Shown here: positions 1,909 to 44,244 of the stretch, piece after piece | How the letters are laid out: every line of letters starts with the position of its first letter | Numbering within the stretch: the stretch's first letter is position 1 | Translations under genes and position numbers: made by a program | The notes under the pieces: model-generated | Told to the model about the DNA's origin: nothing | The model's database searches: none | Seen by the model: only the letters and a program-made list of their open reading frames with translations | Source of the DNA: a bacterium | GTDB taxonomy: Bacteria > Myxococcota_A > Bradymonadia > UBA7976 > UBA1532 | Direction of reading: 5' to 3' | NCBI GenBank assembly: GCA_030426085.1 | Contig: JAUHYW010000003.1 | Location: 119,343 to 183,342 of the forward strand | Length of the DNA: 64,000 bases

Positions 1909-4572
1909 GTGACGTCCCCCCAAGACCCCGACGCCGAGGCCGATCCGCTCATCGGGCGGGCCCTCGGCGGGCGCTACATCATCGAGTCCCCCCTGGCCAG
2001 GGGCACGTTCGGCGCGGTCTATCGAGCCCGCATCGCCGACCGTCAGGTCGCCGTCAAGGTCCTGCACCCCCAGCTCACCGACGCCGAGAGCGCCGAGGCC
2101 AGCCGGGCCCGCTTCATGCGCGAAGCCCGGGTCATGGCCCAGATGGACACCCCCTACGCGGTGCGGCTGCTCGACTGCGGCGAAGAGCCCGACGGCATCG
2201 TGTTCATCGTGCAGGAGCTCATCCACGGGCGCTCGCTGCAGCAGTTCCTCGACGGCGAGGGCGCGGTGACCATCGCCCGGGCCATCGAGCTGTGCACCCA
2301 GATCCTGCAAGCGCTGCAGGACGCCCACGGCCGGGGCATCGTGCACCGGGACATCAACCCGTCGAACATCATGCTGGTGCTCGGCCCCGACGGCCGGGAG
2401 ACGGTGCGGGTGCTCGACTTCGGCATCGCCCGCATCCTCGAAGAAGACGCCCAGGGCAAGCGCATCACCCGCATGGGGCTGACCCTGGGCACGCCGACCT
2501 ACATGGCGCCGGAGCAGATCGACCAGAAGCAGATCGGGCCGGCGACCGACATCTACGCGGTCGGGGTGCTGCTGTTCCGGCTCATCCAGGGGCGGCTGCC
2601 GTTCACCGGCAAGAGCGCCATCGCCATCATGCAGCAGCACCGCGACGCCGCGCCGCCCGACGCCGACGCCGCGCCGGAGGGTTTGCAGGCGGTCATCCAC
2701 AAGGCGCTGGCCAAGTCCCCCGGCGATCGCTACGCCCACGCGGGCGCCATGCGGGCGGCCATCGCCCCGTTCGGGGGCGCCACCAGCGCGCCCATCGTGC
2801 GCCGGGCGGGGGGCGACGACACCCCGGTCTTCGCCACCGCCATCATCAGCAGCGGCGCCCCGGGCGAGGACGAGGCCCCGGCCCCGATCGTCGACCGCGA
2901 GCAGCGCACCAACTGGCTGCTCTTCGGCGCCATCGGGGTGCTGCTCGCCGGCTGCCTGGGCGCGCTGTACGCGATGTTCCTGCGCAGCGAGCCGGCGCCG
3001 GCGCCGACCCCCGGGGTCGAAGCCGGCGTCCAGGTCGAGGGCGACCCGAGCCCGGCTCCGCCCGCCGCGCCGGCCCGGCCCGCGGGCCCGATCGAGCTGA
3101 GCATCGGCTGGACCACCGAGCGGGGCATCCTGCGGGCCTACCCCGAGGGGGAGAGCGCCTCGGCCCTGGCCATCGACCTGACCATCGAGCGGCTGCTGCG
3201 GATCAAACCCGACGGCGAGCCGGCCCCCGGCGCCGTCGCCCGGTGGACCGCCGCCGCCGACGGCCGCTCGGTGGACCTCACGCTGGCCGAGGGGGTGCAG
3301 TTCAACCCCCACCCGTGCCTCGACGGCGCCGGGCGCCCGGCCACCGCGGCCGATCTGGCGTGGTCGGTGACCTACGCCGGCGAGTTCACCCCGGCCCTGG
3401 CCCACACCCCGATCGAGCGGGCCGAGGTGCGCCCCGACGGCGCCGTGCGGGTGATCTTCGAGCGGCCGACCCCCCACGGCGCCCGGCTGCTGAGCGGGGT
3501 CCGGCTGCTGCCGGCCGGCGTCGACGCGTGCGACGACCCCCGCCGCTTCGCCCGCCCGGTGGGCTCCGGCCCCTTCCGCTTCGACGCCGCGCCCCACGAC
3601 GGCCGCTATCGGCTGGTGCGGGCCGAGGCCGGGCGCTGGGCGAAGACCCCCGGGCCGCCGATGATCTACGTCGACCGGGTCGAGGGTGCCGGCGCCGCGC
3701 TGGAGGCGGTCGACGCCGGCCGGCTCGATCTGGCCCGGGTGCCGCTCGACGCCCGGGTCTTCGCCGACCCCCGGGCCGAGGCGCTTCGGCTCGCCGCGAA
3801 GGTCGACGTCACGCCGGCCGCCGAGGTGGACCCCGGCGCGGTGGTGAACTACGGGCTGCTCTTCCTCGGCGACGGCCCCCAGAGCGACCTCGCGGTGCGC
3901 CGGGCCATCGCCGCCGCGCTCGACCGGGCGGCGCTCACCCGCCGGATGCCGATCCGGGTCGAGCCCACCGACCGCATCCTCGAGCCGGGGCTGGCCGGCT
4001 TCGCCGCGCGGCCGGCCACCGCCCACGACCCCCGCGCCGCCCGAAAAGCGATCACCGAGGCCGGCGTCGACCAGCCGCTGCTGCTGGGCACGACCAAGGC
4101 CCACGCCGACGTGGCCGAGGCCGTCGCCGATCAGCTCCGGGCGGTGGGCTTGAAGGTGGTGCTGAGCATCATCGGCCGGGGCCAGCTCGACGACGCGCTG
4201 GCCGATCGCACGCTGGACGCCCTGTTCGTGGAGGTCTCCGGGGCCCGGTTCGCCGCCGATCCGCTGCCCTATCTGCGCGAGGTGGTGCGGCTGGCCCGCC
4301 GGGGCCCGGGTATGGACCCGGCCGACGTCGGGGCGCTGCTCGAGCAGGCCGCCGGCGCGCTCGACGCCAAAGCCCGGGCGGCGCTGTACGCCCGCATCGA
4401 GCAGGCGCTGTCGAGCCACCTGCCCTACGTGCCGGTGGGCCATGTCCCGCCGAGCGCGCCCCGGGCGGCGCTGCTGCTCGGCCCCGACGCGGCCGGGCTG
4501 GCCGGCGCCGACGGTCGGGCGCCGCTCGATGCCATCCGGGCGCTGGCGACCTACGTGCCCTCGGGCGGCTGA
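1909..4572 (+). CDS. Ser/Thr protein kinase fused via one TM helix to an extracytoplasmic solute-binding-protein family 5 (SBP_bac_5-like) domain
   Basis: Hanks kinase motifs ([38 protein letters not shown]). TM segment [24 protein letters not shown]-terminal ~500 aa resemble the peptide/nickel-type SBP5 fold. GTG start with GGAGG RBS 7 nt upstream. Confidence 0.8.
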
Positions 4573-4578
4573 CCCCGC

Positions 4579-5919
4579 TCAGCGCCCGGCCGGCCCCGGC
4601 GCCCCCTGAGCCAGCCACGTCGCGATCATGCGCACCTTCTCCGGCGGCAGCGGCGGCAGGCCCAGGGGCATGCCCGGCCGCTGGGGGTCGGGCCCGGCGG
4701 CGTCGGCCCGGCGCCCGCTGTACGGCGGCCGCACGTCGCGCCCGGCCTCGGCGTGGCGCCGCAGCAGCGCCGCGAGCAGCAGCGGCGGCTCACCTGGCCG
4801 GGGCGGCTCGACGATCGACACCCGCCTGCCGTCGCGCACCAGCCCCCGCTTCACCCCGGCGTAGGTCTCGAGGTCGAGCTGCAGCCCGGCGAAGCCCAGC
4901 CCGCCGGTGTTGCCCGCGCCCCCGTCGCCGTCATTGCTCTCCGGGTTCATGTGGCAGTGCACGCAGATCAGACCCAGGACCTCTTCGAAGACCTCGTCCC
5001 AGGTGACCTGACGGCTCAGCGGCTTCGCCTCGTCGATGGCCACCTGCGGCGCCGGGCCGTCCTTCACCGGCGCGTGCAGCAGGAAGTCGGCGATCTGCCC
5101 CGCCCGCTCGGGGCTCACCCCCAGCGGCGGCATCGTGGAGCGGGGGTCGACCGCGGTCGGCTGCACGATGAACCGCACCAGCGTCGCCCGCGGGATGCGG
5201 TCACGCACGAAGCGCAGGTCGGGCGCGAGCAGCGCCCGGTCGCCCATCGCCGCGAAGAACGCCGGCCCGTAGCCGGGCACCAGCGGCTCGGCCCCCATGA
5301 CGTGGCACGTCGGGCAGCCGGCGGTGAGGAACGCCTGCCGCCCGGCCTCGATCCGCTCCGGGCCGACCGCCGCCTCCCCCGCCCGGCCCCGCTTCACCGC
5401 TGCGTCGCCGTTGAGGGCGGTCAGGTAGGCCACGACCGCGTCCTTGTCGTCGGCCGACAGCCGCAGCGGGATCATCGACTCGTCGAGGTGCGGCCGCAGG
5501 TCGAACGGGGCGTCGAGGAAGCGCCGCACGAAGGCCGGATCGACCCGCCGGGTGAGCGTGCCCAGGTCGGGCAGCCGGCGGAAGTGCACGATGTTGTCGA
5601 GGTATCGATCCCAGTCGGGGAAGGTCTGCCGCTGGCGGGCGATGGCCGCCGGGTCGCCCTTGGTGCCCAGGATCCACTGGTGGCAGGTGACGCAGTTCAT
5701 CGCCCGCTCGATGGGGGCGATGCCCCGCCCCACGCCGGCGGTCGCCGCGGCGTCGGTGACCCCGTGGCACCGGGTGCACTCGGCGGCCTGCATGATCTGC
5801 CGGCCCTTCTCGGCGAGCGGGTCCAGATCGGGGCTGGCGAAGGCGGGGGTGGCGCAGAGCGCGAAGAGCAGGGCGGGGAGCGCGCCCGACCGCGGGCGGG
5901 TGGGCGCGGCGCGATTCAC
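4579..5919 (-). CDS. tetraheme c-type cytochrome, secreted
   Basis: Signal peptide plus four CxxCH motifs (CTRCH, CVTCH, CPTCH, CVHCH). Overlaps the upstream TPR gene by 4 nt. Confidence 0.85.
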   Translation of the reverse strand: MNRAAPTRPRSGALPALLFALCATPAFASPDLDPLAEKGRQIMQAAECTRCHGVTDAAATAGVGRGIAPIERAMNCVTCHQWILGTKGDPAAIARQRQTFPDWDRYLDNIVHFRRLPDLGTLTRRVDPAFVRRFLDAPFDLRPHLDESMIPLRLSADDKDAVVAYLTALNGDAAVKRGRAGEAAVGPERIEAGRQAFLTAGCPTCHVMGAEPLVPGYGPAFFAAMGDRALLAPDLRFVRDRIPRATLVRFIVQPTAVDPRSTMPPLGVSPERAGQIADFLLHAPVKDGPAPQVAIDEAKPLSRQVTWDEVFEEVLGLICVHCHMNPESNDGDGGAGNTGGLGFAGLQLDLETYAGVKRGLVRDGRRVSIVEPPRPGEPPLLLAALLRRHAEAGRDVRPPYSGRRADAAGPDPQRPGMPLGLPPLPPEKVRMIATWLAQGAPGPAGR

Positions 5920-22027: not shown

Positions 22028-22031
22028 GCGT

Positions 22032-22104
22032 GGGCCTATAGCTCAGCGGTTAGAGCTGCCGCCTCATAAGCGGTTGGTCCCAGGTTCGAATCCTGGTGGG
22101 CCCA
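22032..22104 (+). tRNA. tRNA with CAT anticodon (tRNA-Met elongator type, or tRNA-Ile2 if lysidine-modified)
   Basis: Cloverleaf folded by hand: acceptor GGGCCTA/TGGGCCC, D-arm GCTC...GAGC, anticodon stem GCCGC/GCGGT with loop CTCATAA, T-arm CCAGG TTCGAAT CCTGG. G1-C72 pairs, so not an initiator. No encoded CCA. Confidence 0.9.
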
Positions 22105-22179
22105 CCCGTCGCCCGGCGCGACGCGCCGGGCTCGAGATTTTGCCCGAGGCGGACGCGTCCGCCCGACCGGGGAGGCAAG

Positions 22180-22929
22180 GTGAAAGAGACGCTGGCCCAT
22201 CTCATGGAGCTCCAGGCCATCGAAGACGAGCTGCGCGACCTGCGGCAGACGAAGAACCGGCTCGAGGCGTTGACCAAGGACAACGCCGAGACCCGCACGA
22301 TCTTCGAAGAGATGCTCGCCGAGCGGGCGGCCCAGATCGAAGAGGTGCGCGCCTTCTGTGCCGAGAAGGAAGAGGGCATCAAGGAGGCCGAGGAGAATAC
22401 CCGCCGGGCTCGCAGCCGGCTGTCGACGATCACCTCCCAGCGGGAGCTGACCGCGCTCAACAAAGAGCTCGACGTCGCCCGCCGCCAGAACAGCCAGCGC
22501 AGCGAAGAGCTGCTCAAGCTCATGGAGCAGCTCGAGGCGGCCCAGGCGGACTACGAGAAGAAGCAGGCCGAGTTCGAGGCGCTCAAGCAGCAGATGGCCG
22601 AAGTGGAGGGCGAGCTCGTCGAGCGCATCGCCAGCCGCGAGGCGGGCATCACCGCCCAGCGGGCCCGCCAGCAGGAGCTGCGCAAGGCGCTCGACCCGGG
22701 CCTGTTCTCGCGCTTCAACCGCACGGTCAAGGCCCGCAAGGGCGTGGCGGTGGTGCCCATGAGCCAGGACGGGACCTGCACCGGCTGCCGGATGCAGATC
22801 CCGCCGCAGCAGGCCATCCGCATCCAGCGCATGGCGAGCATCGAATACTGTCAGCACTGTCGGCGCATCCTGGTCTACACCGAAGGGCTCGAAGGCTCTT
22901 CGGTCGAGGCCGAGGCCGCCGAGGGCTGA
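22180..22929 (+). CDS. C4 zinc-ribbon domain protein (COG1579/DUF164-like) with long coiled-coil
   Basis: GTG start with GGAGG RBS. Coiled-coil N-terminus. C-terminal CTGCRMQIPPQQ...CQHCRRILV zinc ribbon. Confidence 0.8.
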   Translation: MKETLAHLMELQAIEDELRDLRQTKNRLEALTKDNAETRTIFEEMLAERAAQIEEVRAFCAEKEEGIKEAEENTRRARSRLSTITSQRELTALNKELDVARRQNSQRSEELLKLMEQLEAAQADYEKKQAEFEALKQQMAEVEGELVERIASREAGITAQRARQQELRKALDPGLFSRFNRTVKARKGVAVVPMSQDGTCTGCRMQIPPQQAIRIQRMASIEYCQHCRRILVYTEGLEGSSVEAEAAEG

Positions 22930-22957
22930 CCGGAGAGACACGACACTGACGATTCTT

Positions 22958-23356
<399 letters not shown>

Positions 23357-23408
23357 TCTCCTCTCTCACCCTGACCCAACGGTCGCCCGGCGACCGCGGA
23401 GGGGGCCG

Positions 23409-23864
23409 ATGGCGGCCCGCGGCAAAGACATCGTGACCGTCGCCCGCAACCGGCGGGCGAAGCACGACTACGAGATCGTCGACACCTACGAGGCCGGGCT
23501 GCAGCTCACCGGCACCGAGGTCAAGAGCCTGCGCGAAGGCCACGCGACCATCGCCGAGGGCTACGTGCAGATCAAAGGCCGCGAAGCGTGGCTGGTGGGG
23601 GCGTACATCCCCGAATACCGCTACGGCAACATCAACAACCACCCGCCCCGGCGGGACCGCAAGCTGCTGCTGCACCGCCACCAGATCGACCGCGTCGCGG
23701 GCAAGCTCAAAGAGCAGGGCTTCACCGCCGTGCCGATGGCGATCTACTTCAAGCAGGGCAAGGCCAAGCTCGAGTTCGGGCTCGGCAAGGGCAAGAAGAA
23801 GTACGACAAGCGCCACGCCGAGCGGGAGAAGAGCGCCCGCCGGGCCATGCGCGACGCCTACTGA
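23409..23864 (+). CDS. smpB: SsrA-binding protein
   Basis: Full-length SmpB similarity (IVTVARNRRAKHDYEIVDTYEAGLQLTGTEVKSLREGHATI...). GGAGGGGG RBS. Confidence 0.95.
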   Translation: MAARGKDIVTVARNRRAKHDYEIVDTYEAGLQLTGTEVKSLREGHATIAEGYVQIKGREAWLVGAYIPEYRYGNINNHPPRRDRKLLLHRHQIDRVAGKLKEQGFTAVPMAIYFKQGKAKLEFGLGKGKKKYDKRHAEREKSARRAMRDAY

Positions 23865-23983
23865 CCCCCGAAGCGGCCGGAATCGACCGCCGGGGTTTGA
23901 CACGAACCGGGCCCGTGCCTACCGTGCGGGCCGCGACGGTCGAGGCCGTCGGGGCATCCCACCGGGTGCCACTCTTTGAAAAT

Positions 23984-24344
23984 GGGGGCGATTGGTTTCG
24001 ACGGGGATGCTGAAACCCTGTCCGCGTGTCGCGCTTCTCGGTCAGCGCGTTAAAAAGGTCGAACGGCTATAACTGCCAACGATGATATGGAGATTGCTCT
24101 CGCCGCGTAAGTGAGCGTGAGTCGTCCTGCCAACCCTCGCCCATGGGGTTGAACGGGGCGTCACATCAGTGGGCTGGCCGAAGAGCGGTGCTCGTAACGC
24201 TCCGAGGCGAGATCAAATCGAGCTCCCCCGAACGGAAGCCCGCCCGTGGGCGACCGCCGGGGTAAAACAGAACGCGGGATACACACGTAGACGGCAGCGG
24301 CGGACGATTTCCGGACCCGGGTTCGACTCCCGGCGCCTCCACCA
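23984..24344 (+). ncRNA. ssrA: tmRNA (transfer-messenger RNA)
   Basis: 5' GGGGGCGATTGGTTTCGACGGGG and 3' GGACCCGGGTTCGACTCCCGGCGCCTCCACCA tRNA-like ends. Internal tag ORF gcc aac gat gat atg gag att gct ctc gcc gcg taa (24075-24110) gives ANDDMEIALAA. Confidence 0.9.
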
Positions 24345-33161: not shown

Positions 33162-33323
33162 CGGCGGGATCGGGCGGGGCCGATCGCGCGTCGCATCCCT
33201 CCGCCGGCATGATCCGGATCAGGTTCTGCGGATATCTCTCAGCCCCCGGCCATCGAGGGCACTCCGAGCGACGCGGGCGGACTGTGGACCACCGGGTCGG
33301 CCGGGGTCAAGGGGGGCCCGAGG

Positions 33324-37174: not shown

Positions 37175-37275
37175 GATACCGGCCTTGAATGGGGCTGACG
37201 GGGGTCGGGAGCCCCCCGGGAGTCTGCGACGCCCGCCCGCATCCTGTCAATCTCGCCCACCGGGGGGGTCTCGCC

Positions 37276-38721
37276 GTGTCCCGCGCGTCGGCCATCGTCG
37301 CCCTGCTGCTCTCGGTGTCGCTGGCGTCCCCCGCCGCGGCCGGCGGCTTCCTCGTGGCCCGCTTCGGCGGCGAGCACGGGCACGTCACCACCGACAACCC
37401 CACCGCGCTGTATTACAACCCCGCCGCGCTGACCCTGGTCGGCGGCTCCCGGCTCTACATCGACGGCACCATCGCCTGGCGCAGCCTGGTCTTCGAGCGT
37501 GATCCGGCGGCGATCGACAACCCGCTCGAGCCGGGGGAGCGGGCGGCGGGCACCCCGGCCGATCTGGTCGCGGCCAACAGCGGCGAGGGGCGGCTGTCGG
37601 CCGTGGGCGCGGCGCCGTTCATCGGCTTCGCCAGCGACCTGGGCGTCGAGGGGCTGGCGGTCGGCCTGGGCTACTACGTGCCGTTCGGCGGCGGCTCCAC
37701 CTGGGAGCAGGCCGATCCGATCCCCGGCCACCCGGGCGCGGTCGACGGGCCCCAGCGGTGGTGGGCCATCGCCGGCAGCGTGCGCACCTCGTACCTGACC
37801 GCCGCCAGCGCGTTCCACATGCCCGACCTGCGGCTGTCGCTGGGCATGGCGTTCAACCTGACCCAGAGCATCGTGCACACCACCCGGGCCCGCAACGCCT
37901 CGGGCCACGACCACATGGTCGACGTCAACGGCAACTTGCAGGAGGGCCGGGCGCTCGTCGAGGCCGAAGGCTGGGAGCCGGCCCTGGGGCTGGGGCTCTT
38001 GTGGGAGCCGACGCCGGGCCGGATCTGGGTCGGCCTGAGCTATCAAAGCCAGCCCAACTTCGGCCCCAGCGAGCTGGAGGGCGAGGCCCTCATCGTGCAG
38101 GCGCTCGCCCCGCCCCAGACCTCGGTGGTCAAGCTGTTCCACGAGTACCCCGACGTGTGGCGCCTGGGCCTGCGTTGGCGGGCCTCGGCCCACAGCGAGC
38201 TGCGGCTCGAGGCGAGCTATCAGCGGTGGAGCGTGCTCGATACCCAGTGCGTCATCGACGTCGAGGCGGGCCAGAAGTGCGACGGCAGCACGGCGGTGGT
38301 CGCGCTGCTGCCCCGCTACTGGGAGGACACCATCAACCTGCGCCTCGGCGGCTCGTACTGGCCCACCGAGCACCTCGAGGCGACCTTCGGCCTCGGCTTC
38401 GACGAGAGCGCGGTGCCCGATCACACCCTCGAGCCGGGTCTGTACGACGCCGACAAGGTCACCGCGACGCTGGGGGCCAAGGTGATGCTGCTCGACGATG
38501 CGCTGGGGCTCACGTTGATGTATACCCAGGTGCTCAACTTCCCGCGCACGATCGCCCCCCGGGGGCGGGTCGTCGACCGGGCCGGCGGCGACGGCGAGGC
38601 GGTCACCGAGACCGACATCGCCGCCGTCGGCCTCGAGCGGGCCGAGCGCAACCCCGACGCGGCGGGTCGCTACGACTCGACGACCGGGGCGTTCAACGTG
38701 AGCCTGGAGTACCGCTTCTGA
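37276..38721 (+). CDS. outer-membrane transport protein of the FadL/OmpP1/TodX family
   Basis: Signal peptide. N-terminal hatch motif GGFLVARFGGEHGHVTTDNPTALYYNPAALT. C-terminal EYRF. GTG start chosen just upstream of the signal peptide. Confidence 0.8.
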   Translation: MSRASAIVALLLSVSLASPAAAGGFLVARFGGEHGHVTTDNPTALYYNPAALTLVGGSRLYIDGTIAWRSLVFERDPAAIDNPLEPGERAAGTPADLVAANSGEGRLSAVGAAPFIGFASDLGVEGLAVGLGYYVPFGGGSTWEQADPIPGHPGAVDGPQRWWAIAGSVRTSYLTAASAFHMPDLRLSLGMAFNLTQSIVHTTRARNASGHDHMVDVNGNLQEGRALVEAEGWEPALGLGLLWEPTPGRIWVGLSYQSQPNFGPSELEGEALIVQALAPPQTSVVKLFHEYPDVWRLGLRWRASAHSELRLEASYQRWSVLDTQCVIDVEAGQKCDGSTAVVALLPRYWEDTINLRLGGSYWPTEHLEATFGLGFDESAVPDHTLEPGLYDADKVTATLGAKVMLLDDALGLTLMYTQVLNFPRTIAPRGRVVDRAGGDGEAVTETDIAAVGLERAERNPDAAGRYDSTTGAFNVSLEYRF

Positions 38722-38758: not shown

Positions 38759-39787
38759 ATGCCGCTGAGCGCCGTCGAGGGCCAGCCCCGGGCGCTCGAG
38801 GCGCTTCGCCGGGCCCTGCAGCACCAGCGGCTGCACCACGCCTACCTGTTCGCCGGGCCCGAGGGGGTCGGCAAGGGGCTCGCCGCCCAGGGGCTGGCCG
38901 AGGCGCTGCTGTGCACCGCGCCGCTCGAAGACGGCGACGCGTGCGGAGCGTGCAGCGCGTGCCGGCGCTCGGCCGGGCGTCAGCACCCCGACCTGCACGT
39001 CGTCGAGCGGCGCACCAAGGGCAACACCGACGAGCGCGAGCGGCAGATCAAGATCGATCAGGTGCGGGCGCTGCAGCGGGCGCTGAGCTTCAAGAGCTAC
39101 GAGGGCGCCCGGCGGGTGGTCCTGATCATCGAGCCGGAGAAGATGAACCCGGCGACGGCCAACGCGCTGCTCAAGACCCTCGAGGAGCCGGGGCCCGACA
39201 CCCACTTCGTGCTGGTCACCGCCGAGCCCCACCGGCTGCTGCCGACGGTGATCAGCCGCTGCCAGCGGGTGCGCTTCCAGCCGCTCGACCGGGCGCTGGT
39301 GGCCCGCAAGCTGGCCGAGCTGGCCGATCTGGAGCCGGGGGCGGCCCACCTGCTCGCCGGGCTGGCCGAGGGCTCGATCGGCAAGGGGCTGACGCTTCAG
39401 GGCAGCGCGCTGCTCGAGCAGCGGCAGGGCATCATCGGCCGCATCGACGACCCCGACGGGCCCCGCCGGGTGCCGCAGCTCCTCGACTACGCCGAGACGC
39501 TCGCCCGCCCCGACCGCCGGGCCGGGCTGCCGCTGGTGTTCCACCTGCTGCGCACCTGGTACCGCGACATCCTGCTGGTGCAGGAGGGCTTCGGCGACGA
39601 GGCGCTCGTGCACCGCGACCTGGCCGAGCAGATCCGCCGGCGGGCGCCCGCGCTCTCGGGGCCGGCGGTGCTCGACCGGCTGACGCTGCTCAACGAGACC
39701 GAGTACGCGATCTTCGAGCGCATGGCCAACGCCCGGCTGTCGATGGAGAGCCTGGTACTGCGGCTGGCCGGCGCGGTGGAGGGATAG
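38759..39787 (+). CDS. holB: DNA polymerase III subunit delta'
   Basis: HAYLFAGPEGVGK Walker-like loop. Zinc module CGACSACRR. SRC motif (TVISRCQRVRF). Confidence 0.85.
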   Translation: MPLSAVEGQPRALEALRRALQHQRLHHAYLFAGPEGVGKGLAAQGLAEALLCTAPLEDGDACGACSACRRSAGRQHPDLHVVERRTKGNTDERERQIKIDQVRALQRALSFKSYEGARRVVLIIEPEKMNPATANALLKTLEEPGPDTHFVLVTAEPHRLLPTVISRCQRVRFQPLDRALVARKLAELADLEPGAAHLLAGLAEGSIGKGLTLQGSALLEQRQGIIGRIDDPDGPRRVPQLLDYAETLARPDRRAGLPLVFHLLRTWYRDILLVQEGFGDEALVHRDLAEQIRRRAPALSGPAVLDRLTLLNETEYAIFERMANARLSMESLVLRLAGAVEG

Positions 39788-39791
39788 GCCG

Positions 39792-40493
39792 ATGAGCGCC
39801 CCCGACGACGAGGTCCTGTTCGGCGAGCTGGTCGACGCGATGCTGCTGCCCGACGGGGCCCTGACCCCCACCGAGCAGGCGCTGGCCGAGGCCGAGGCCG
39901 CCCGGGCGGCGCGCATCGCCGAGGCGCTCACCGAGGCCCGGGCCGAAGCCGAGCGGCGGGCCGAGGCCGAGGCCGCCGCCGCCCGCGAGGCCGAGAAGCG
40001 GGCCGACGAGGCCCACGCCCGCCGCCGCAGCCGGGTGGCCGGCGCCCGGGGGGACGACCCCCGCGACGGGGAGGCCGACGCCGAACCCCGCCGGGGCCGC
40101 AGCGGCAGCCGCCGCCGTCGCAGCGGGCGCCGGAGCGGCCGCAGCAGCGGGCAGAGCGGGCAGAGCGGGCAGCAGGGGCGCCGCCGCAGCGGCGGGCAGG
40201 GCGAGCGGAGCGGTCAGGGCGCCGAGGGCAGCCAGAGCGGCGAGCAGGGCGGCAGCCGGCGCCGTCGACGCCGGCGGGGCGGCGCGCGCAAGAGCGGGGG
40301 GCAGCCGGGCGGCGGGCAGGCTCAGAAGGCCGGCGGCCGGCAGCGCGGCGGGCAGGGCCAGCAAAGCGGCGGGCCGGGCCAGCAAGGCGGCGGGCCGGGC
40401 CAGAAGGGCGGCGGACGGCGCCGTCGGCGGGGGTCACGGCAGGGTGGCCAGGGCGGCGGCGCGCGTGCTAAGGACTCCGGCCCGAAGGACTGA
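39792..40493 (+). CDS. hypothetical Arg/Gly/Ser/Gln-rich intrinsically disordered basic protein
   Basis: Starts 4 nt after holB. 20 nt upstream of the metG RBS. Strong GC3 bias in frame. N-terminal ~70 aa helical and acidic, then RRRSGRRSGRSSGQSGQSGQQGRRR... with tandem DNA repeats (e.g. cagcaaRgcggcgggccgggc x2). Confidence 0.5.
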   Translation: MSAPDDEVLFGELVDAMLLPDGALTPTEQALAEAEAARAARIAEALTEARAEAERRAEAEAAAAREAEKRADEAHARRRSRVAGARGDDPRDGEADAEPRRGRSGSRRRRSGRRSGRSSGQSGQSGQQGRRRSGGQGERSGQGAEGSQSGEQGGSRRRRRRRGGARKSGGQPGGGQAQKAGGRQRGGQGQQSGGPGQQGGGPGQKGGGRRRRRGSRQGGQGGGARAKDSGPKD

Positions 40494-40516
40494 TCCTCGA
40501 AGCCAGGAGCGCCGGC

Positions 40517-42478
40517 ATGTCGCGCACCGTCTACGTCACCAGCCCGATCTACTACGTCAACGCCGCGCCGCACATCGGCCACGCCTACACCAGCCTCGCC
40601 GCCGACAGCCTCGTCCGGTGGCACGCGCTGTGCGGGGCCGATACGTTCCTGCTGACCGGCACCGACGAGCACGGCCTCAAGATCGCCCAGGCGGCCCGCA
40701 AAGCGGGGGTCACCCCCCAGGCCCACGCCGATCGCTACTCCAAGCCGTTCCGCGACATGTGCGACCGGCTCGACGTGGCCTACGACGACTTCATCCGCAC
40801 CACCCAGGACCGCCACAAGGCCGTCGTCGCCGAGATGTGGCGCCGCATGAAGGCCGCCGGCGACATCTACGAGTCGGTCTACGAGGGCTGGTACAGCGTC
40901 GGCGACGAGGCGTACTTCACCGAGGACGAGCTGGTCGACGGCAAGGCCCCCAGCGGGCACACGGTCGAGTGGGTCGAGGAGCCGAGCTACTTCTTCCGGC
41001 TGTCGAAGTACGGCCCGAAGCTGCTGGCCCACCTCGACGCCCACCCGGCGTTCGTGCAGCCCCAGAGCCGGTCGAACGAGGTGCGCCGCTTCATCGAGCA
41101 GGGGCTCAACGACATCTCGATCAGCCGGGCCAACTTCGACTGGGGGGTGCCCATCCCCGACGCCGAGGGGCACGTCGCCTACGTGTGGCTCGACGCGCTG
41201 ACCAACTACATCAGCGCCCTCGGCGGCCCCGTCGGCGAGCGCTTCGCCCGCTACTGGCCCACCGCCGCGGCGGACGACGTCGGCGTCGAGCACCACGCGG
41301 TGCACCTCATCGGCAAGGACATCCTGCGGTTCCACGCGATCTACTGGCCGGCGTTCCTGATGAGCGCCGGGCTGCCGCTGCCGTCCCAGGTCTTCGCCCA
41401 CGGCTGGTGGACCAACGAAGACGCCAAGATGAGCAAGACCGCGGGCAACGTGATCGACCCGTTCGACATGGCCGACCGCTACGGAGCCGACGCCTTCCGC
41501 TACTTCCTGCTGCGGGAGATCACGTTCGGCACCGACGGCGCCTTCAGCGAGACCGCGCTGCGCAACCGCATCAACGGCGATCTGGCCAACGACTACGGCA
41601 ACCTCGTCAACCGCACGCTGGGCATGCTGATGCGCTACCGCAAAGGCGTGGTGCCGGCGCGGGGCACCTCCGACAAGGAGCACGACGCCATCCTGCTCGC
41701 CGCCGCGTCCCAAGCCCGGGCCGGGGCCGAGCAGGCGATGGGTGATCTGGCGTTCAACCAGGCGCTGGCGGCGATCTGGGGGCTGGTCTCGGCGGCCAAC
41801 AAGTACGTCGACAGCACCGCCCCCTGGAAGCTGGACAAGTCCGGCGACGACGGGCGGCTGGACGAGGCGCTCTACAATCAGGTCGAGGCGCTGCGGGTCA
41901 TCGGCATCCTGACCCGGCCGTTCCTGCCGCAGAAGGCCGACCTGCTGCTCGACTGGCTGGGGGTCGACCCCGCCGAGCGCACCTTCGAGGCGACCGCCCG
42001 CTGGGGCGGCATGCCCTCGGGGGCGAAGGTGAAGAAGGGCAAGGCGCTCTTCCCCCGCATCGATCCGCCCAAGGCCGCCCCGGCGGCCCCGGCGCCCGCG
42101 CCGGCCGAGAAGAAGAAGGAGGCCCCGGTGAGCGCGAAGGCCGAAGAGAGCGGCGTCATCGAGTTCGGTGACTTCACCAAGGTCGAGCTGCGGGTGGCGA
42201 AGGTGATCGCCGCCGAGGCCCACCCCAACGCCGACCGCCTGCTCAAGCTGACCCTCGACGCCGGCGAGGCCGAGCCGCGCACCGTCTGCGCCGGCATCGC
42301 CGCGGCCTACGCCCCGGCCGATCTGGTCGGTCGCACCGTGGCCCTCGTCGCCAACCTCGCCCCGCGCAAGCTGCGGGGGGTGATGAGCCAGGGCATGCTG
42401 CTCGCCGCCGGCGAAGGGGCCGACGTGCAGCTCGTGACGGTGCCCGGTGACATCGCCCCCGGTACGCGCATCTCTTGA
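40517..42478 (+). CDS. metG: methionine--tRNA ligase with C-terminal EMAP/Trbp111-type tRNA-binding domain
   Basis: HIGH motif (APHIGHAYT). KMSKS motif (KMSKTAGN). Anticodon-binding helices. C-terminal OB-fold (VELRVAKVIAAEAHPNADRLLKLTLD). Confidence 0.95.
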   Translation: MSRTVYVTSPIYYVNAAPHIGHAYTSLAADSLVRWHALCGADTFLLTGTDEHGLKIAQAARKAGVTPQAHADRYSKPFRDMCDRLDVAYDDFIRTTQDRHKAVVAEMWRRMKAAGDIYESVYEGWYSVGDEAYFTEDELVDGKAPSGHTVEWVEEPSYFFRLSKYGPKLLAHLDAHPAFVQPQSRSNEVRRFIEQGLNDISISRANFDWGVPIPDAEGHVAYVWLDALTNYISALGGPVGERFARYWPTAAADDVGVEHHAVHLIGKDILRFHAIYWPAFLMSAGLPLPSQVFAHGWWTNEDAKMSKTAGNVIDPFDMADRYGADAFRYFLLREITFGTDGAFSETALRNRINGDLANDYGNLVNRTLGMLMRYRKGVVPARGTSDKEHDAILLAAASQARAGAEQAMGDLAFNQALAAIWGLVSAANKYVDSTAPWKLDKSGDDGRLDEALYNQVEALRVIGILTRPFLPQKADLLLDWLGVDPAERTFEATARWGGMPSGAKVKKGKALFPRIDPPKAAPAAPAPAPAEKKKEAPVSAKAEESGVIEFGDFTKVELRVAKVIAAEAHPNADRLLKLTLDAGEAEPRTVCAGIAAAYAPADLVGRTVALVANLAPRKLRGVMSQGMLLAAGEGADVQLVTVPGDIAPGTRIS

Positions 42479-42482
42479 CCGC

Positions 42483-42504
42483 GCGGGGCACGCGGCCCCG
42501 CTTT
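42483..42504 (+). terminator. hairpin gcggggc-acgcg-gccccgc followed by TTT, 5 nt after the metG stop
   Basis: Read from the sequence. Sits about 20 nt before the dps start codon, so the dps promoter must lie inside the metG 3' end, or this is a partial terminator. Confidence 0.5.
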
Positions 42505-42524
42505 GGACCGCAAGGAGCAGCCAT

Positions 42525-42995
42525 ATGAAGCCAAACATCGGGATTGCCGAGGACGCCCGCGCCGAGATCGTGCAGGGCCTGAGCCGGGTGCTGGCCGACA
42601 GCTACACCCTGATGCTCAAGACCCTCAACTTCCACTGGAACGTCAAGGGGCCGATGTTCCGCACGCTGCACCTCATGTTCGAGGAGCAGTACAACGAGCT
42701 GCTGCCGGCGGTGGACCAGGTCGCCGAGCGCATCCTGGTGCTGGGCCACCCGGCTCCGGCGAGCTATCGGCAGTTCGCCGAGCTGGCCTCGATCGAGGAA
42801 GAGGAGGGGGTGCCGGCGGCCCTCGACATGGTGCGCGCGCTCAAGGACGGGCACGAGGCGGTCGCCCGCACCGCTCGCGGGGCGCTCGGCGCCGCCGAGA
42901 AGGCCGAGGACGAGGCCACCGTCGACCTGCTCGTTCAGCGCATGCAGACCCACGAGAAGACCGCCTGGATGCTGCGGGCCCTGCTCGAAGGCTGA
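42525..42995 (+). CDS. dps: Dps (DNA-binding ferritin-like protein from starved cells)
   Basis: Ferritin-like helices with ferroxidase residues (HWNVKGPMFRTLHLMFEEQYNEL...D...E). AGGAG RBS 9 nt upstream. Confidence 0.9.
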   Translation: MKPNIGIAEDARAEIVQGLSRVLADSYTLMLKTLNFHWNVKGPMFRTLHLMFEEQYNELLPAVDQVAERILVLGHPAPASYRQFAELASIEEEEGVPAALDMVRALKDGHEAVARTARGALGAAEKAEDEATVDLLVQRMQTHEKTAWMLRALLEG

Positions 42996-43083: not shown

Positions 43084-43998
43084 TCAGAAGTAGCAGACGC
43101 TGTCGGCGGCGCAGTACCAGCCCGAGGGGCAGTGGGCGTCGACGTCGCAGTACTGCGCGGCGTAGCACAGCCCGTCGCCCCCGCAGATGCTGTCCCCCGG
43201 GCAGTCGCCGTCGTAGTCGCACAGCAGCGCGTCGGCGTAGCACTCGCCGTCGCCGGCGCAGACCGCCCCGGCGGGGCACTCCCAGTCGGCCCGGCACTCG
43301 GCGAGCGCCTCGCACAGCCCGTCGATCCGGCAGAAGTAGCCGTCGGCGCAGTCGAAGTCGTCCCGGCAGCCGGGGATCTCCTCGCAGGCGCCGTCGCCCC
43401 GGCAGAAGAAGCCCGGCGCGCAGTCGCGGTCGGCGCGGCAGCCCACGAACTCCTCGCAGACCCCGTCGGCCCGGCAGAAGTAGCCGTTGGCGCAGTCCCG
43501 GTCGGAGCGGCATCCGGGGATCTCTTCGCAGGCGCCGTCACCCCGGCAGGTGTAGCCCGCCGCGCAGTCCCGATCGGAGCGGCAGCCGGGCACCGGCAGG
43601 CAGGCCCCGGCGTCGCAGTACTCGCCGGCGCCGCAGTGGCTGTTGTCCCAACAGTCGGGCAGGGAGACGCAGGCCCCGGCGTCGCAGAAGCCGTCGGGCC
43701 CGCACTCGCGGTCGACGGTGCAGCCGCGCACGTCCTCGCAGCGGCCGCGGTCGCAGATGGCGCCGGGGCCGCACTCGGCGTCGCCGATGCAGCCGGCCTC
43801 GGCGTAGCACAGGCCGTCTTCGGAGCAGAACTCGGTGTCGAAGCACTCGTCGTCGAGCAGGCAGCCGCCGGGTGCGGCGCGGCCGGAGGGTTCGTAGTCG
43901 ATGTCGTCGCCGTGCAGGTGGCAGCCGGCCATGAAGAGGGAGAGGCCGATGGCGAGGAGGGGCAGGGTGGTCGCGGCGCGGGTATCGGAGCGGTTCAT
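43084..43998 (-). CDS. lipoprotein composed of ~10 tandem Cys-rich ~21-aa repeats (resembles the Myxococcus cysteine-rich repeat)
   Basis: Signal plus lipobox LSLFMAGC|H. Repeats of the form GCRSDRDC(A/P)xG(Y/F)(T/F)CRxDGxCEEIP. Start at an internal ATG of the track ORF. Confidence 0.75.
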   Translation of the reverse strand: MNRSDTRAATTLPLLAIGLSLFMAGCHLHGDDIDYEPSGRAAPGGCLLDDECFDTEFCSEDGLCYAEAGCIGDAECGPGAICDRGRCEDVRGCTVDRECGPDGFCDAGACVSLPDCWDNSHCGAGEYCDAGACLPVPGCRSDRDCAAGYTCRGDGACEEIPGCRSDRDCANGYFCRADGVCEEFVGCRADRDCAPGFFCRGDGACEEIPGCRDDFDCADGYFCRIDGLCEALAECRADWECPAGAVCAGDGECYADALLCDYDGDCPGDSICGGDGLCYAAQYCDVDAHCPSGWYCAADSVCYF

Positions 43999-44125
43999 GG
44001 GAATGCCTCGGTGAGTGAGTTTCGATGACGGCCGGGCCGACGGGGCCCCCCCGGGAATATTCGGGCCCCTTCGAAAAACACCGCCCGGCGGCGCGCCGAA
44101 GGCCCGCGCGACGGATTGTTTGTTG

Positions 44126-44154
44126 TTGGTCACCGAAGTGGGGTGGCCTATACT
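44126..44154 (+). promoter_or_regulatory. candidate sigma70-type promoter (TTGGTC - 17 nt - TATACT)
   Basis: AT-richer patch ggattgtttgttgttggtcacc...ggcctatact about 95 nt upstream of the 44245 GTG. Confidence 0.35.
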
Positions 44155-44244
44155 CGCTGCGGGCCGCGCGCGCACGGCCGTAGGGGGAGGTCGCGCGGTC
44201 GTCCAGGCTGATTTGCCGGGGCACGCCGGCGGGGAGGACAGCGC

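Follow-up and report, generated by a model that had tools for sequence, protein, structure and literature searches.

Our analysis of a 64,000-nucleotide (nt) stretch of bacterial DNA (the window; contig JAUHYW010000003.1 of GenBank assembly GCA_030426085.1, from the Bradymonadia) reveals a small gene that belongs to a previously undescribed family. It lies between holB, which encodes the delta' subunit of DNA polymerase III, and metG, which encodes methionyl-tRNA synthetase. Members of the family, here called minis, are small and almost wholly disordered proteins that occur in one Myxococcota clade. The mini gene of the window encodes 233 amino acids (aa) and occupies the slot where Nitrospirota, and also one sister group within the clade, have ricT/yaaT; the earlier note had not recognised it as the ricT slot. 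Taken together, the sequence comparisons are probably best explained by a derivative of RicT that has lost its folded core and would act as a disordered adaptor.

The family is not detected by Pfam, NCBIfam, word-indexed or exhaustive HMMER searches. Searches of Pfam, NCBIfam and PDB sequences with the window open reading frame (ORF) returned noise only (E above 0.006, far under the cutoffs). Two word-indexed searches, one with the full ORF and one with an N-terminal alignment, gave no match, the query included, because the list of 8000 candidates was saturated by low-complexity words; an exhaustive phmmer search with the N-terminal 100 aa against 1.84 billion representatives also gave none. 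Since the word-indexed and exhaustive searches missed even the query's own cluster, such empty results for low-complexity genes of this kind are not evidence that homologs are absent. Genes of this type are found only through comparison anchored on synteny. Two anchors were used: holB in genome contigs, followed through a graded series of holB homologs and contig look-ups, and a clade-specific FadL-like gene 5' of holB, which was scanned in metagenomes. The holB relatives number 673 at E<=1e-40, the closest named ones being from Myxococcales, Bradymonadia and metagenome-assembled genomes (MAGs) of Myxococcota. Most of the 'holB' loci in the genome scan were dnaX-ybaB-recR and were discarded.

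This approach yielded 22 related loci (denoted by L numbers) with sequence 3' of holB. At 17 of them, the window being the seventeenth, a small ORF without a detectable domain begins at the holB stop codon. The earlier note on this stretch had allowed that relatives might carry no orthologous ORF, which would have pointed to an expanded intergenic repeat; the 17 loci show otherwise. The homologs come from Myxococcota MAGs and metagenomes, with holB identities of 45-99% and guanine plus cytosine (GC) contents of 56-73%, and the mini-bearing organisms are known as uncultured MAGs. A protein identical to that of the window is present, with the same neighbours, on three short Logan contigs. Annotators sometimes miss the gene or call the wrong strand, and elsewhere annotation pipelines label minis as hypothetical. 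The L039 mini (4531-4743) is not called in the NCBI annotation of its MAG contig; that of L040 (4586-5062) is not called either, its place in the annotation being taken by an opposite-strand ORF of 84 aa (4496-4750).

At the GC content of the window (73.2%) the length of an ORF means little by itself, because many long shadow ORFs overlap at such values. The case for a coding gene therefore relies on GC at third codon positions (GC3), conservation, in-frame insertions and deletions (indels) and the conserved coupling of the start to holB. At the three codon positions GC amounts to 0.86/0.69/0.93 over the whole ORF and 0.875/0.56/0.99 over its first 80 codons, in line with the strong GC3 bias claimed in the earlier note; the corresponding values are 0.79/0.46/0.97 for holB and 0.68/0.47/0.97 for metG, while two shadow ORFs on the opposite strand reach only 0.80 and 0.75 at position 3. 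In 13 of 16 relatives the start of the mini overlaps the holB stop or directly adjoins it (as ATGA or GTGA in 12); in L034, L042 and L046 it lies 1, 14 and 26 nt past the stop, respectively. In the window the gap is 4 nt, as the note had it, and the ortholog in L004, like the window gene, is preceded by GGAGGG. The ORF is also retained in L040, L041, L048 and L053 at 56-64% GC, where a long chance ORF is improbable.

Two independent pairs of relatives reveal how the gene evolves. Between the window and L004 the mini is 65% identical and holB 87%, and 6/6 indels in the mini are in frame (6, 6, 6, 3, 12 and 6 nt). By a crude Nei-Gojobori estimate in a genome of extreme GC3, omega (the ratio of nonsynonymous to synonymous rates) for this pair is 0.72 for the mini (head 0.60, tail 0.80), 0.33 for holB and 0.39 for metG. 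Between L048 and L053 the mini is 58% identical and holB 84%, all three indels are in frame (9, 3 and 3 nt), and omega is 0.18 for the mini and 0.084 for holB. In both pairs the omega of the mini is about 2.2 times that of holB. Selection on the mini is thus relaxed but purifying. These comparisons make it very likely that the mini frame is translated and selected, in agreement with the earlier reading of the ORF as most likely translated. Variation of repeat number among strains, which the note thought possible, is not seen: the three Logan contigs all carry the identical protein. Between species the tracts do change in length but always stay in frame, as in the comparison with L004.

Across the family, length varies between 65 and 263 aa, isoelectric point (pI) between 4.7 and 11.6 and net charge between -4 and +21. 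Two elements alone are retained throughout this turnover, an amphipathic motif near the N-terminus and a poly-Arg run near the C-terminus, neither of which the earlier description had singled out. The basic RG/SG/QG tail, to which that description drew attention, is confined to the subclade of the window, L004 and L034. Other minis have linkers with RP[DE]RP repeats (L005, L035 and L042), Pro/Glu-rich linkers (L032, L036 and L040) or almost none (L030, L037 and L039). A run of five or more Arg or Lys residues ([RK]5) at most 30 aa from the C-terminus, with a polar, Gly-rich end behind it, is present in 8 of 10 complete minis; such a run also occurs in 4 of 4 slot RicT proteins, versus about 1% of background ORFs. 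The N-terminal motif, which in the window reads DDEVLFGELVDAMLLPD, has the consensus [DE]xxφFxxLφ[DE]A[LM]LxP and is located among the ~30 N-terminal residues. Its spacing of F, L, φ, L and L (i, i+3, i+4, i+7 and i+8) is that of an amphipathic helix, which the proline closes. The window protein combines all the traits of the family: the motif, the C-terminal [RK]5 run, a start next to the holB stop and no folded domain.

A hidden Markov model (HMM) of the 17-aa motif segment was scored against 13,608 six-frame background ORFs. The 17 members score 16.6-23.8 bits (19.6 for the window) and the best background ORF 12.8 bits, with the rest at most 7.2. The 12.8-bit match, in L055, is an off-frame artefact and was rejected. 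Since the members are also the training set, a leave-one-out test was run on the first 11 minis. It recovered the window, L004, L034, L005 and L037 with E values of 5e-4 to 3.5e-3, the window being the top non-training match at 16.3 bits (E=3.5e-3); L036, L030 and L032 were the top non-training match weakly, and L035, L039 and L040 were not recovered. In a prospective test of an earlier HMM on six minis fetched later, four ranked 12th-16th of 13,608, with one false match interleaved, and two were missed. The sequence scores thus indicate a real motif in the core of the family, whereas in its most distant members the likeness is one of architecture only.

The equivalence of the mini slot and the ricT slot emerges from the loci that lack a mini. 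In Nitrospirota (L006 and L007) the gene order is holB, a PSP1 domain protein (PF04468, 108-117 bits) and metG. At four Myxococcota loci (L033, L038, L050 and L062) a protein of 495-519 aa starts at the holB stop and replaces the mini. The L033 protein is RicT/YaaT (NF041131, 155 bits against a cutoff of 70; PF04468, 57 bits), that of L038 is 64% identical to the L033 core (tblastn, 1.4e-108), and those of L050 and L062 score 288-294 bits with a RicT-core HMM built here and match L038 by tblastn. None of the 17 minis or of the four Myxococcota RicT genes begins more than 26 nt from the holB stop, and most of them overlap it; the two Nitrospirota RicT genes start roughly 110-220 nt after holB. 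At the loci examined, the mini and RicT never occur together in the slot. Linkage of holB and yaaT is also seen in Bacillus, where the two belong to one linkage group (STRING group, PMC3814617).

RicT/YaaT is an RNA-processing factor with a PSP1 domain and forms part of the RNase Y specificity complex in Bacillus. It is the iron-sulfur (Fe-S) subunit of the RicAFT complex ('Y-complex') of Bacillus subtilis and is handed to RNase Y (PMC10470536); it is defined by six cysteines in the pattern CX4CCX30CX4CC (PMC6751060). The canonical motif is present in Nitrospirota L007, and the 17 minis contain 0-1 cysteine each, the window protein none. A PSP1/RicT core was sought in every frame of the window, of all the minis' slot DNA and of mini-bearing loci totalling 202.5 kb; none was found, while positive controls worked across phyla (E = 1e-27). 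In the searchable literature we found neither a core-less form of RicT nor a RicT from Myxococcota. The full-length RicT proteins of Myxococcota have a reduced, four-cysteine motif, CX4C-X30-CX5C, together with disordered tails of 200 aa. This combination of a reduced motif and long tails suggests that their Fe-S stoichiometry or partner contacts may differ.

Several features connect the minis with the RicT proteins of the slot. All six slot RicT proteins, those of Nitrospirota included, carry a long disordered C-terminal extension, consisting of an acidic/polar stretch, basic repeats and, with 6-16 aa still to follow, a run of Arg or Lys, much as most complete minis have one near their end. 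RP[DE]RP and Q[RK]QG repeats are common to mini tails and full-length RicT tails; those in the Myxococcota RicT tails include QRQGPGQ (L033) and RPDRPD, RPREP and RPERG (L038, L033 and L050). In addition, the Myxococcota RicT proteins have an N-terminal extension of 25-45 aa, absent from Nitrospirota RicT, with a hydrophobic pattern like that of the minis (MSTFDSLLDLV, MSAGVFEALFGLM and LYDALLDLLVEDDDP). We compared the first 60 aa of minis and full-length RicT proteins by Smith-Waterman alignment, with z computed against shuffles. Six of 68 mini-RicT pairs have z above 3, versus none of 136 control pairs with holB, metG and FadL N-termini (maximum 2.93). The positive N-termini are those of L042, L035, L036 and L041 (z = 3.2-5.7); the window protein itself is not among them. 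The L042 mini reaches z values of 5.7, 5.0 and 3.65 with the RicT proteins of L038, L062 and L050, and 0, 0 and 3 of 1000 shuffles, respectively, attain the observed score. It aligns with RicT collinearly through the motif and on into the strand that opens the RicT core, RPVRLA.R.E.RP (RPVRLADARPEARP in the mini, RPVRLARVRHEGRP in RicT).

These likenesses suggest that the mini probably descends from RicT by an internal deletion of the folded core. The loci with full-length RicT form one holB group (bootstrap of 97.5% for L033+L038; 60-78% pairwise identity), from which the mini lineages are roughly equidistant, and this arrangement is compatible with a single loss. The window protein itself follows holB directly, as RicT does in Nitrospirota, Myxococcota and B. 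subtilis, yet it has no PSP1 domain, no match to NF041131 or PF04468, no Fe-S cysteines and no folded core. As it fails on both of the sequence features that define RicT, it is not a member of the RicT family, and it can neither bind an Fe-S cluster nor work in the manner of RicT. The most fitting description is that of a derivative of RicT without a core, or of its successor in position, with a family of its own.

A number of observations weigh against this descent. The link to RicT is transitive, since it depends on L042 and a small number of further minis. The motif HMM gives about 1 bit or less on the RicT N-termini of L033 and L038, and in a larger search none of the four RicT N-termini reached the listing limit of 3.5 bits. 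Composition-corrected BLAST yields no match between minis and RicT, and the tail of the window protein is no closer to RicT tails than are shuffles (z = 2.7 and -0.3). An HMM of the C-terminal module, unstable owing to low complexity, speaks neither for nor against the link. Within the family, L035, L039, L040, L041 and L046 are assigned mainly by position and architecture and fail the motif tests, and selection on the window gene is relaxed (omega 0.6-0.8 against L004). The backbone of the neighbor-joining tree of holB is poorly supported (0.5-37%), and L039 and L040, which carry minis, branch off at its base, so there may have been several losses, or replacement instead of deletion.

Replacement would mean that an unrelated, lineage-specific small disordered protein, of de novo origin or derived from other sequence, displaced ricT from the slot and that low complexity converged on the likeness to RicT tails. 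Poly-Arg and RG/QG/RP repeats easily arise in DNA of 70% GC, no significant similarity relates the window protein to any RicT, and the basal position of L039 and L040 would fit. Unrelated genes can also occupy the slot. In L031 (5571-7643; Bradymonadia MAG JBKAGE010000081) it holds an unrelated Asp/Ala-rich protein of 690 aa without a Pfam match, which has an apparent signal peptide, at a locus where metG is absent; the slot is thus evolutionarily labile. We nevertheless consider displacement somewhat unlikely, as the mini and RicT are mutually exclusive and start at exactly the same position on the holB stop, the C-terminal poly-Arg is common to minis and RicT even in another phylum while being rare in background ORFs, and the N-terminal alignments of L042, L035 and L036 to RicT surpass all 136 controls.

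Two further explanations were considered. A decaying ricT pseudogene, or an expanded GC-rich intergenic repeat that is open by chance, would account for the omega of 0.72 (0.80 in the tail), for the very rapid turnover of length and composition and for the failure of annotators to call the gene in L039 and L040, and long shadow ORFs are indeed common at this GC. It is hard to reconcile, however, with an ORF that is open in 17 lineages, including those of 56-64% GC, with nine of nine indels in frame in two independent pairs, with the omega of 0.18 in L048/L053, with the conservation of the start context, N-terminal motif and poly-Arg run, or with a GC3 that fits the mini frame and not the ORFs of the opposite strand; such decay is very improbable and largely refuted. 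The last alternative, that the region encodes an RNA element, either a tRNA-Pro(CGG) or a metG leader, instead of or besides a protein, deserves almost no credence. ARAGORN does call a 97-nt tRNA-Pro(CGG) inside the ORF (40036-40132, minus strand), and this stretch folds strongly (-74 kcal/mol, z = -2.9), but at minimum energy it forms a long hairpin instead of a cloverleaf, its length exceeds that of a tRNA-Pro, and no tRNA is predicted in eight orthologous loci. Rfam, its tRNA model included, matches neither strand of 39500-40800 at E<=1, and no covariation support for a structured leader was seen. The tRNA call is a false positive caused by the GC-rich repeats.

If the mini is a core-less derivative of RicT, its present form and action might be pictured as follows. 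Internal deletion of the RicT core would have joined the clade-specific N-terminal extension to the pre-existing disordered C-terminal tail. The gene itself is very likely translated just past holB, from its own Shine-Dalgarno site in the end of holB. The acidic amphipathic helix at the N-terminus could serve as a docking motif that folds on binding to a folded partner, and the poly-Arg run would bind RNA, DNA or, less likely, another polyanion. The subclade of the window has this element greatly lengthened, to an RG/SG/QG polycation of roughly 145 aa with a net charge of +20. The mini would thereby link a partner protein flexibly to nucleic acid and be produced along with the delta' subunit. 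A tether or adaptor is suggested by the fact that two short linear elements flank a freely evolving disordered spacer, and membrane binding is disfavoured because the flanks of the motif are acidic. From the sequence we infer the docking and nucleic-acid-binding roles; for the latter, as for condensate formation, the earlier proposal is reasonable.

Comparable Arg/Gly-rich disordered tails that bind nucleic acids are known from the C-terminal extensions of the DEAD-box helicase RhlE and from the C-terminal half of RNase E. The tail of the window protein resembles these in being of low complexity, strongly basic and RG-rich, and by analogy non-specific RNA binding may be expected of it. The tails of RhlE and RNase E, however, are attached to a catalytic domain, whereas the mini is a tail plus a 17-aa motif of docking type, and no sequence relationship to such tails turned up in the homology searches.

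Two clues bear on the partner of the mini. Its ancestry points to the interaction network of RicT. The clamp loader comes into view because the mini is still the last gene after holB where metG is absent. Here the analogy is with psi (HolD) of Escherichia coli, which reportedly docks on the collar of the gamma complex through an N-terminal peptide, a result that Simonetta et al. are said to have presented in 2009. Like psi, the mini is a small protein with an N-terminal amphipathic peptide, and it is encoded beside a subunit of the clamp loader; psi differs in being folded and in binding chi, and has no sequence similarity to the mini. The mini lineage is not known to have chi or psi, and that the mini might bind delta' or the clamp loader is no more than conjecture.

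A more far-reaching version of this idea, which we regard as improbable, holds that the RicT termini are an autonomous module, made of a docking helix and a poly-Arg tether, that was kept long after the core was lost, and that the coupling to holB reflects a physical or functional link to delta'. The mini would then resemble psi as an accessory protein and hold on nucleic acid either the clamp loader or an RNA-processing partner associated with replication. If so, it would offer the first mechanistic handle on the widespread and unexplained linkage of holB and ricT. On the main reading, descent of the mini from RicT, the clade would represent a natural dissection of RicT, in which the Fe-S/PSP1 core was dropped and the disordered ends kept; the ends would be useful alone, and the function of the core would be dispensable or supplied elsewhere in the clade. 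Here the association with holB has survived the loss of the RicT core as well as that of metG as a neighbour, which bears on the unexplained adjacency of holB and ricT across phyla. Small disordered proteins peculiar to one lineage are, in themselves, common.

The earlier note had tied the mini to replication and translation genes alike. The first half of this linkage stands, as holB is conserved; the second does not, as the mini persists where metG is gone. In L039, L040, L048 and L053 metG is absent after the mini and the next gene lies on the other strand. metG follows the slot gene in L004, L030, L032, L033, L035, L036, L038, L046 and L050, and in L037 the mini is followed by a gene of 657 aa, metG-sized and without a Pfam match on record. 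On the other side, the FadL-type gene lies 5' of holB also in L004, L030, L031, L033-L036, L038 and L039. In the window, holB and metG are confirmed by Pfam as the neighbours of the ORF, and the distance from the mini to metG is 23 nt, not the 20 nt given before.

The window protein consists mostly of Gly, Arg and Ala (22%, 19% and 15%; G 51, R 44, A 35, Q 21, S 19 and E 19 of 233 residues). Its overall pI of 11.6 conceals a marked polarity, with 4.3 for residues 1-75 and 12.0 for residues 76-233. AlphaFold2 (AF2), run in single-sequence mode, predicts a short helix at residues 6-17 with a low predicted local distance difference test score (pLDDT), a long single helix after it and nothing structured past residue 88. 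The acidic helical head and very basic disordered tail described before are thus borne out. Conservation of the helical part, which the note had suggested looking for, is limited: the long helix is restricted to the window, L004 and L034, and the shorter minis lack it. The tandem repeats seen in the DNA were recovered by Tandem Repeats Finder (TRF), where the quoted unit, cagcaaRgcggcgggccgggc, makes up an array of 21 bp x 3.3 at 40345-40414 (91% matches, score 112). Further arrays have units of 9 bp (3.4 copies, 40141-40172) and 21 bp (2.8 copies, 40088-40145), and every TRF period in the mini ORF is a multiple of 3. The block AHARRRSRVAGARGDDPRDGE is invariant between the window and L004, although the protein as a whole is fast-evolving and of low complexity. 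The features of the window and the related loci are listed in Table 1.

Table 1. Features of the mini locus and mini-bearing relatives. Coordinates are those of the window unless a locus is named; identities marked 'about' are taken from a pairwise matrix.
Feature or locus	Coordinates	Strand	Evidence or remark	holB identity to window	Mini length
FadL/TodX-type outer-membrane transporter gene	37189..38721	+	PF03349 Toluene_X, 1.8e-19		
holB (DNA polymerase III delta' subunit)	38759..39787	+	PF13177 DNA_pol3_delta2, 1e-50		
Shine-Dalgarno-like GGAGGG	39778..39783	+	Within final holB codons, 8 nt before mini ATG		
Mini gene (disordered protein, core-less, RicT-like)	39792..40493	+	ORF, ATG to TGA		233 aa
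N-terminal amphipathic motif, aa 5-21	39804..39854	+	Motif HMM		
Ala/Glu/Arg-rich long single helix, aa 26-87	39867..40052	+	AF2 pLDDT above 90		
Conserved block, aa 74-94	40011..40073	+	Alignment; 100% identical in L004		
Disordered Arg/Gly/Ser/Gln tail, aa 88-233	40053..40490	+	pLDDT ~50, no secondary structure, in-frame tandem repeats		
Internal R7 run, aa 156-162	40257..40277	+	Equivalent RRRRRRR in L004		
C-terminal poly-Arg run R5, aa 209-213	40416..40430	+	20 aa from end, then Gly-rich polar end		
metG (methionyl-tRNA synthetase)	40517..42478	+	tRNA-synt_1g (class-I catalytic domain) 8e-107, plus anticodon and tRNA_bind domains		
Full-length RicT genes	L033 5546-7105; L038 3415-4902; L050 7057-8559; L062 2344-3585				
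L004				87%	228 aa
L034				77%	263 aa
L030				72%	84 aa
L035				67%	219 aa
L005				64%	partial
L036				63%	65 aa
L032				61%	170 aa
L037				59%	75 aa
L039				49%	70 aa
L040				45%	158 aa
L041				about 59-60%	148 aa
L042				about 58%	259 aa
L046				about 59%	220 aa
L048				about 61%	122 aa
L052					partial
L053				about 58%	123 aa

Other features of the window include a Dps/ferritin-like gene directly 3' of metG (42447-42995, plus strand; PF00210, 2e-27), which is found after metG in L004 and L030 as well. A 363-aa ORF on the minus strand (43084-44175), with repeated Cys-rich units of the form C..D.DC..G..C...G.CE...GC and an apparent N-terminal signal or lipoprotein-like segment, resembles the Cys-rich repeat proteins typical of Myxococcota. 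A cluster of stable RNAs on the plus strand (22031-24344) comprises a tRNA-Met(CAT) at 22031-22107, a class A RNase P RNA at 22970-23348 (246 bits) and a transfer-messenger RNA at 23984-24344 with the tag peptide ANDDMEIALAA. A thiamine pyrophosphate riboswitch (RF00059) lies on the minus strand at 33179-33276, scoring 63.8 bits against a gathering score of 54.3.

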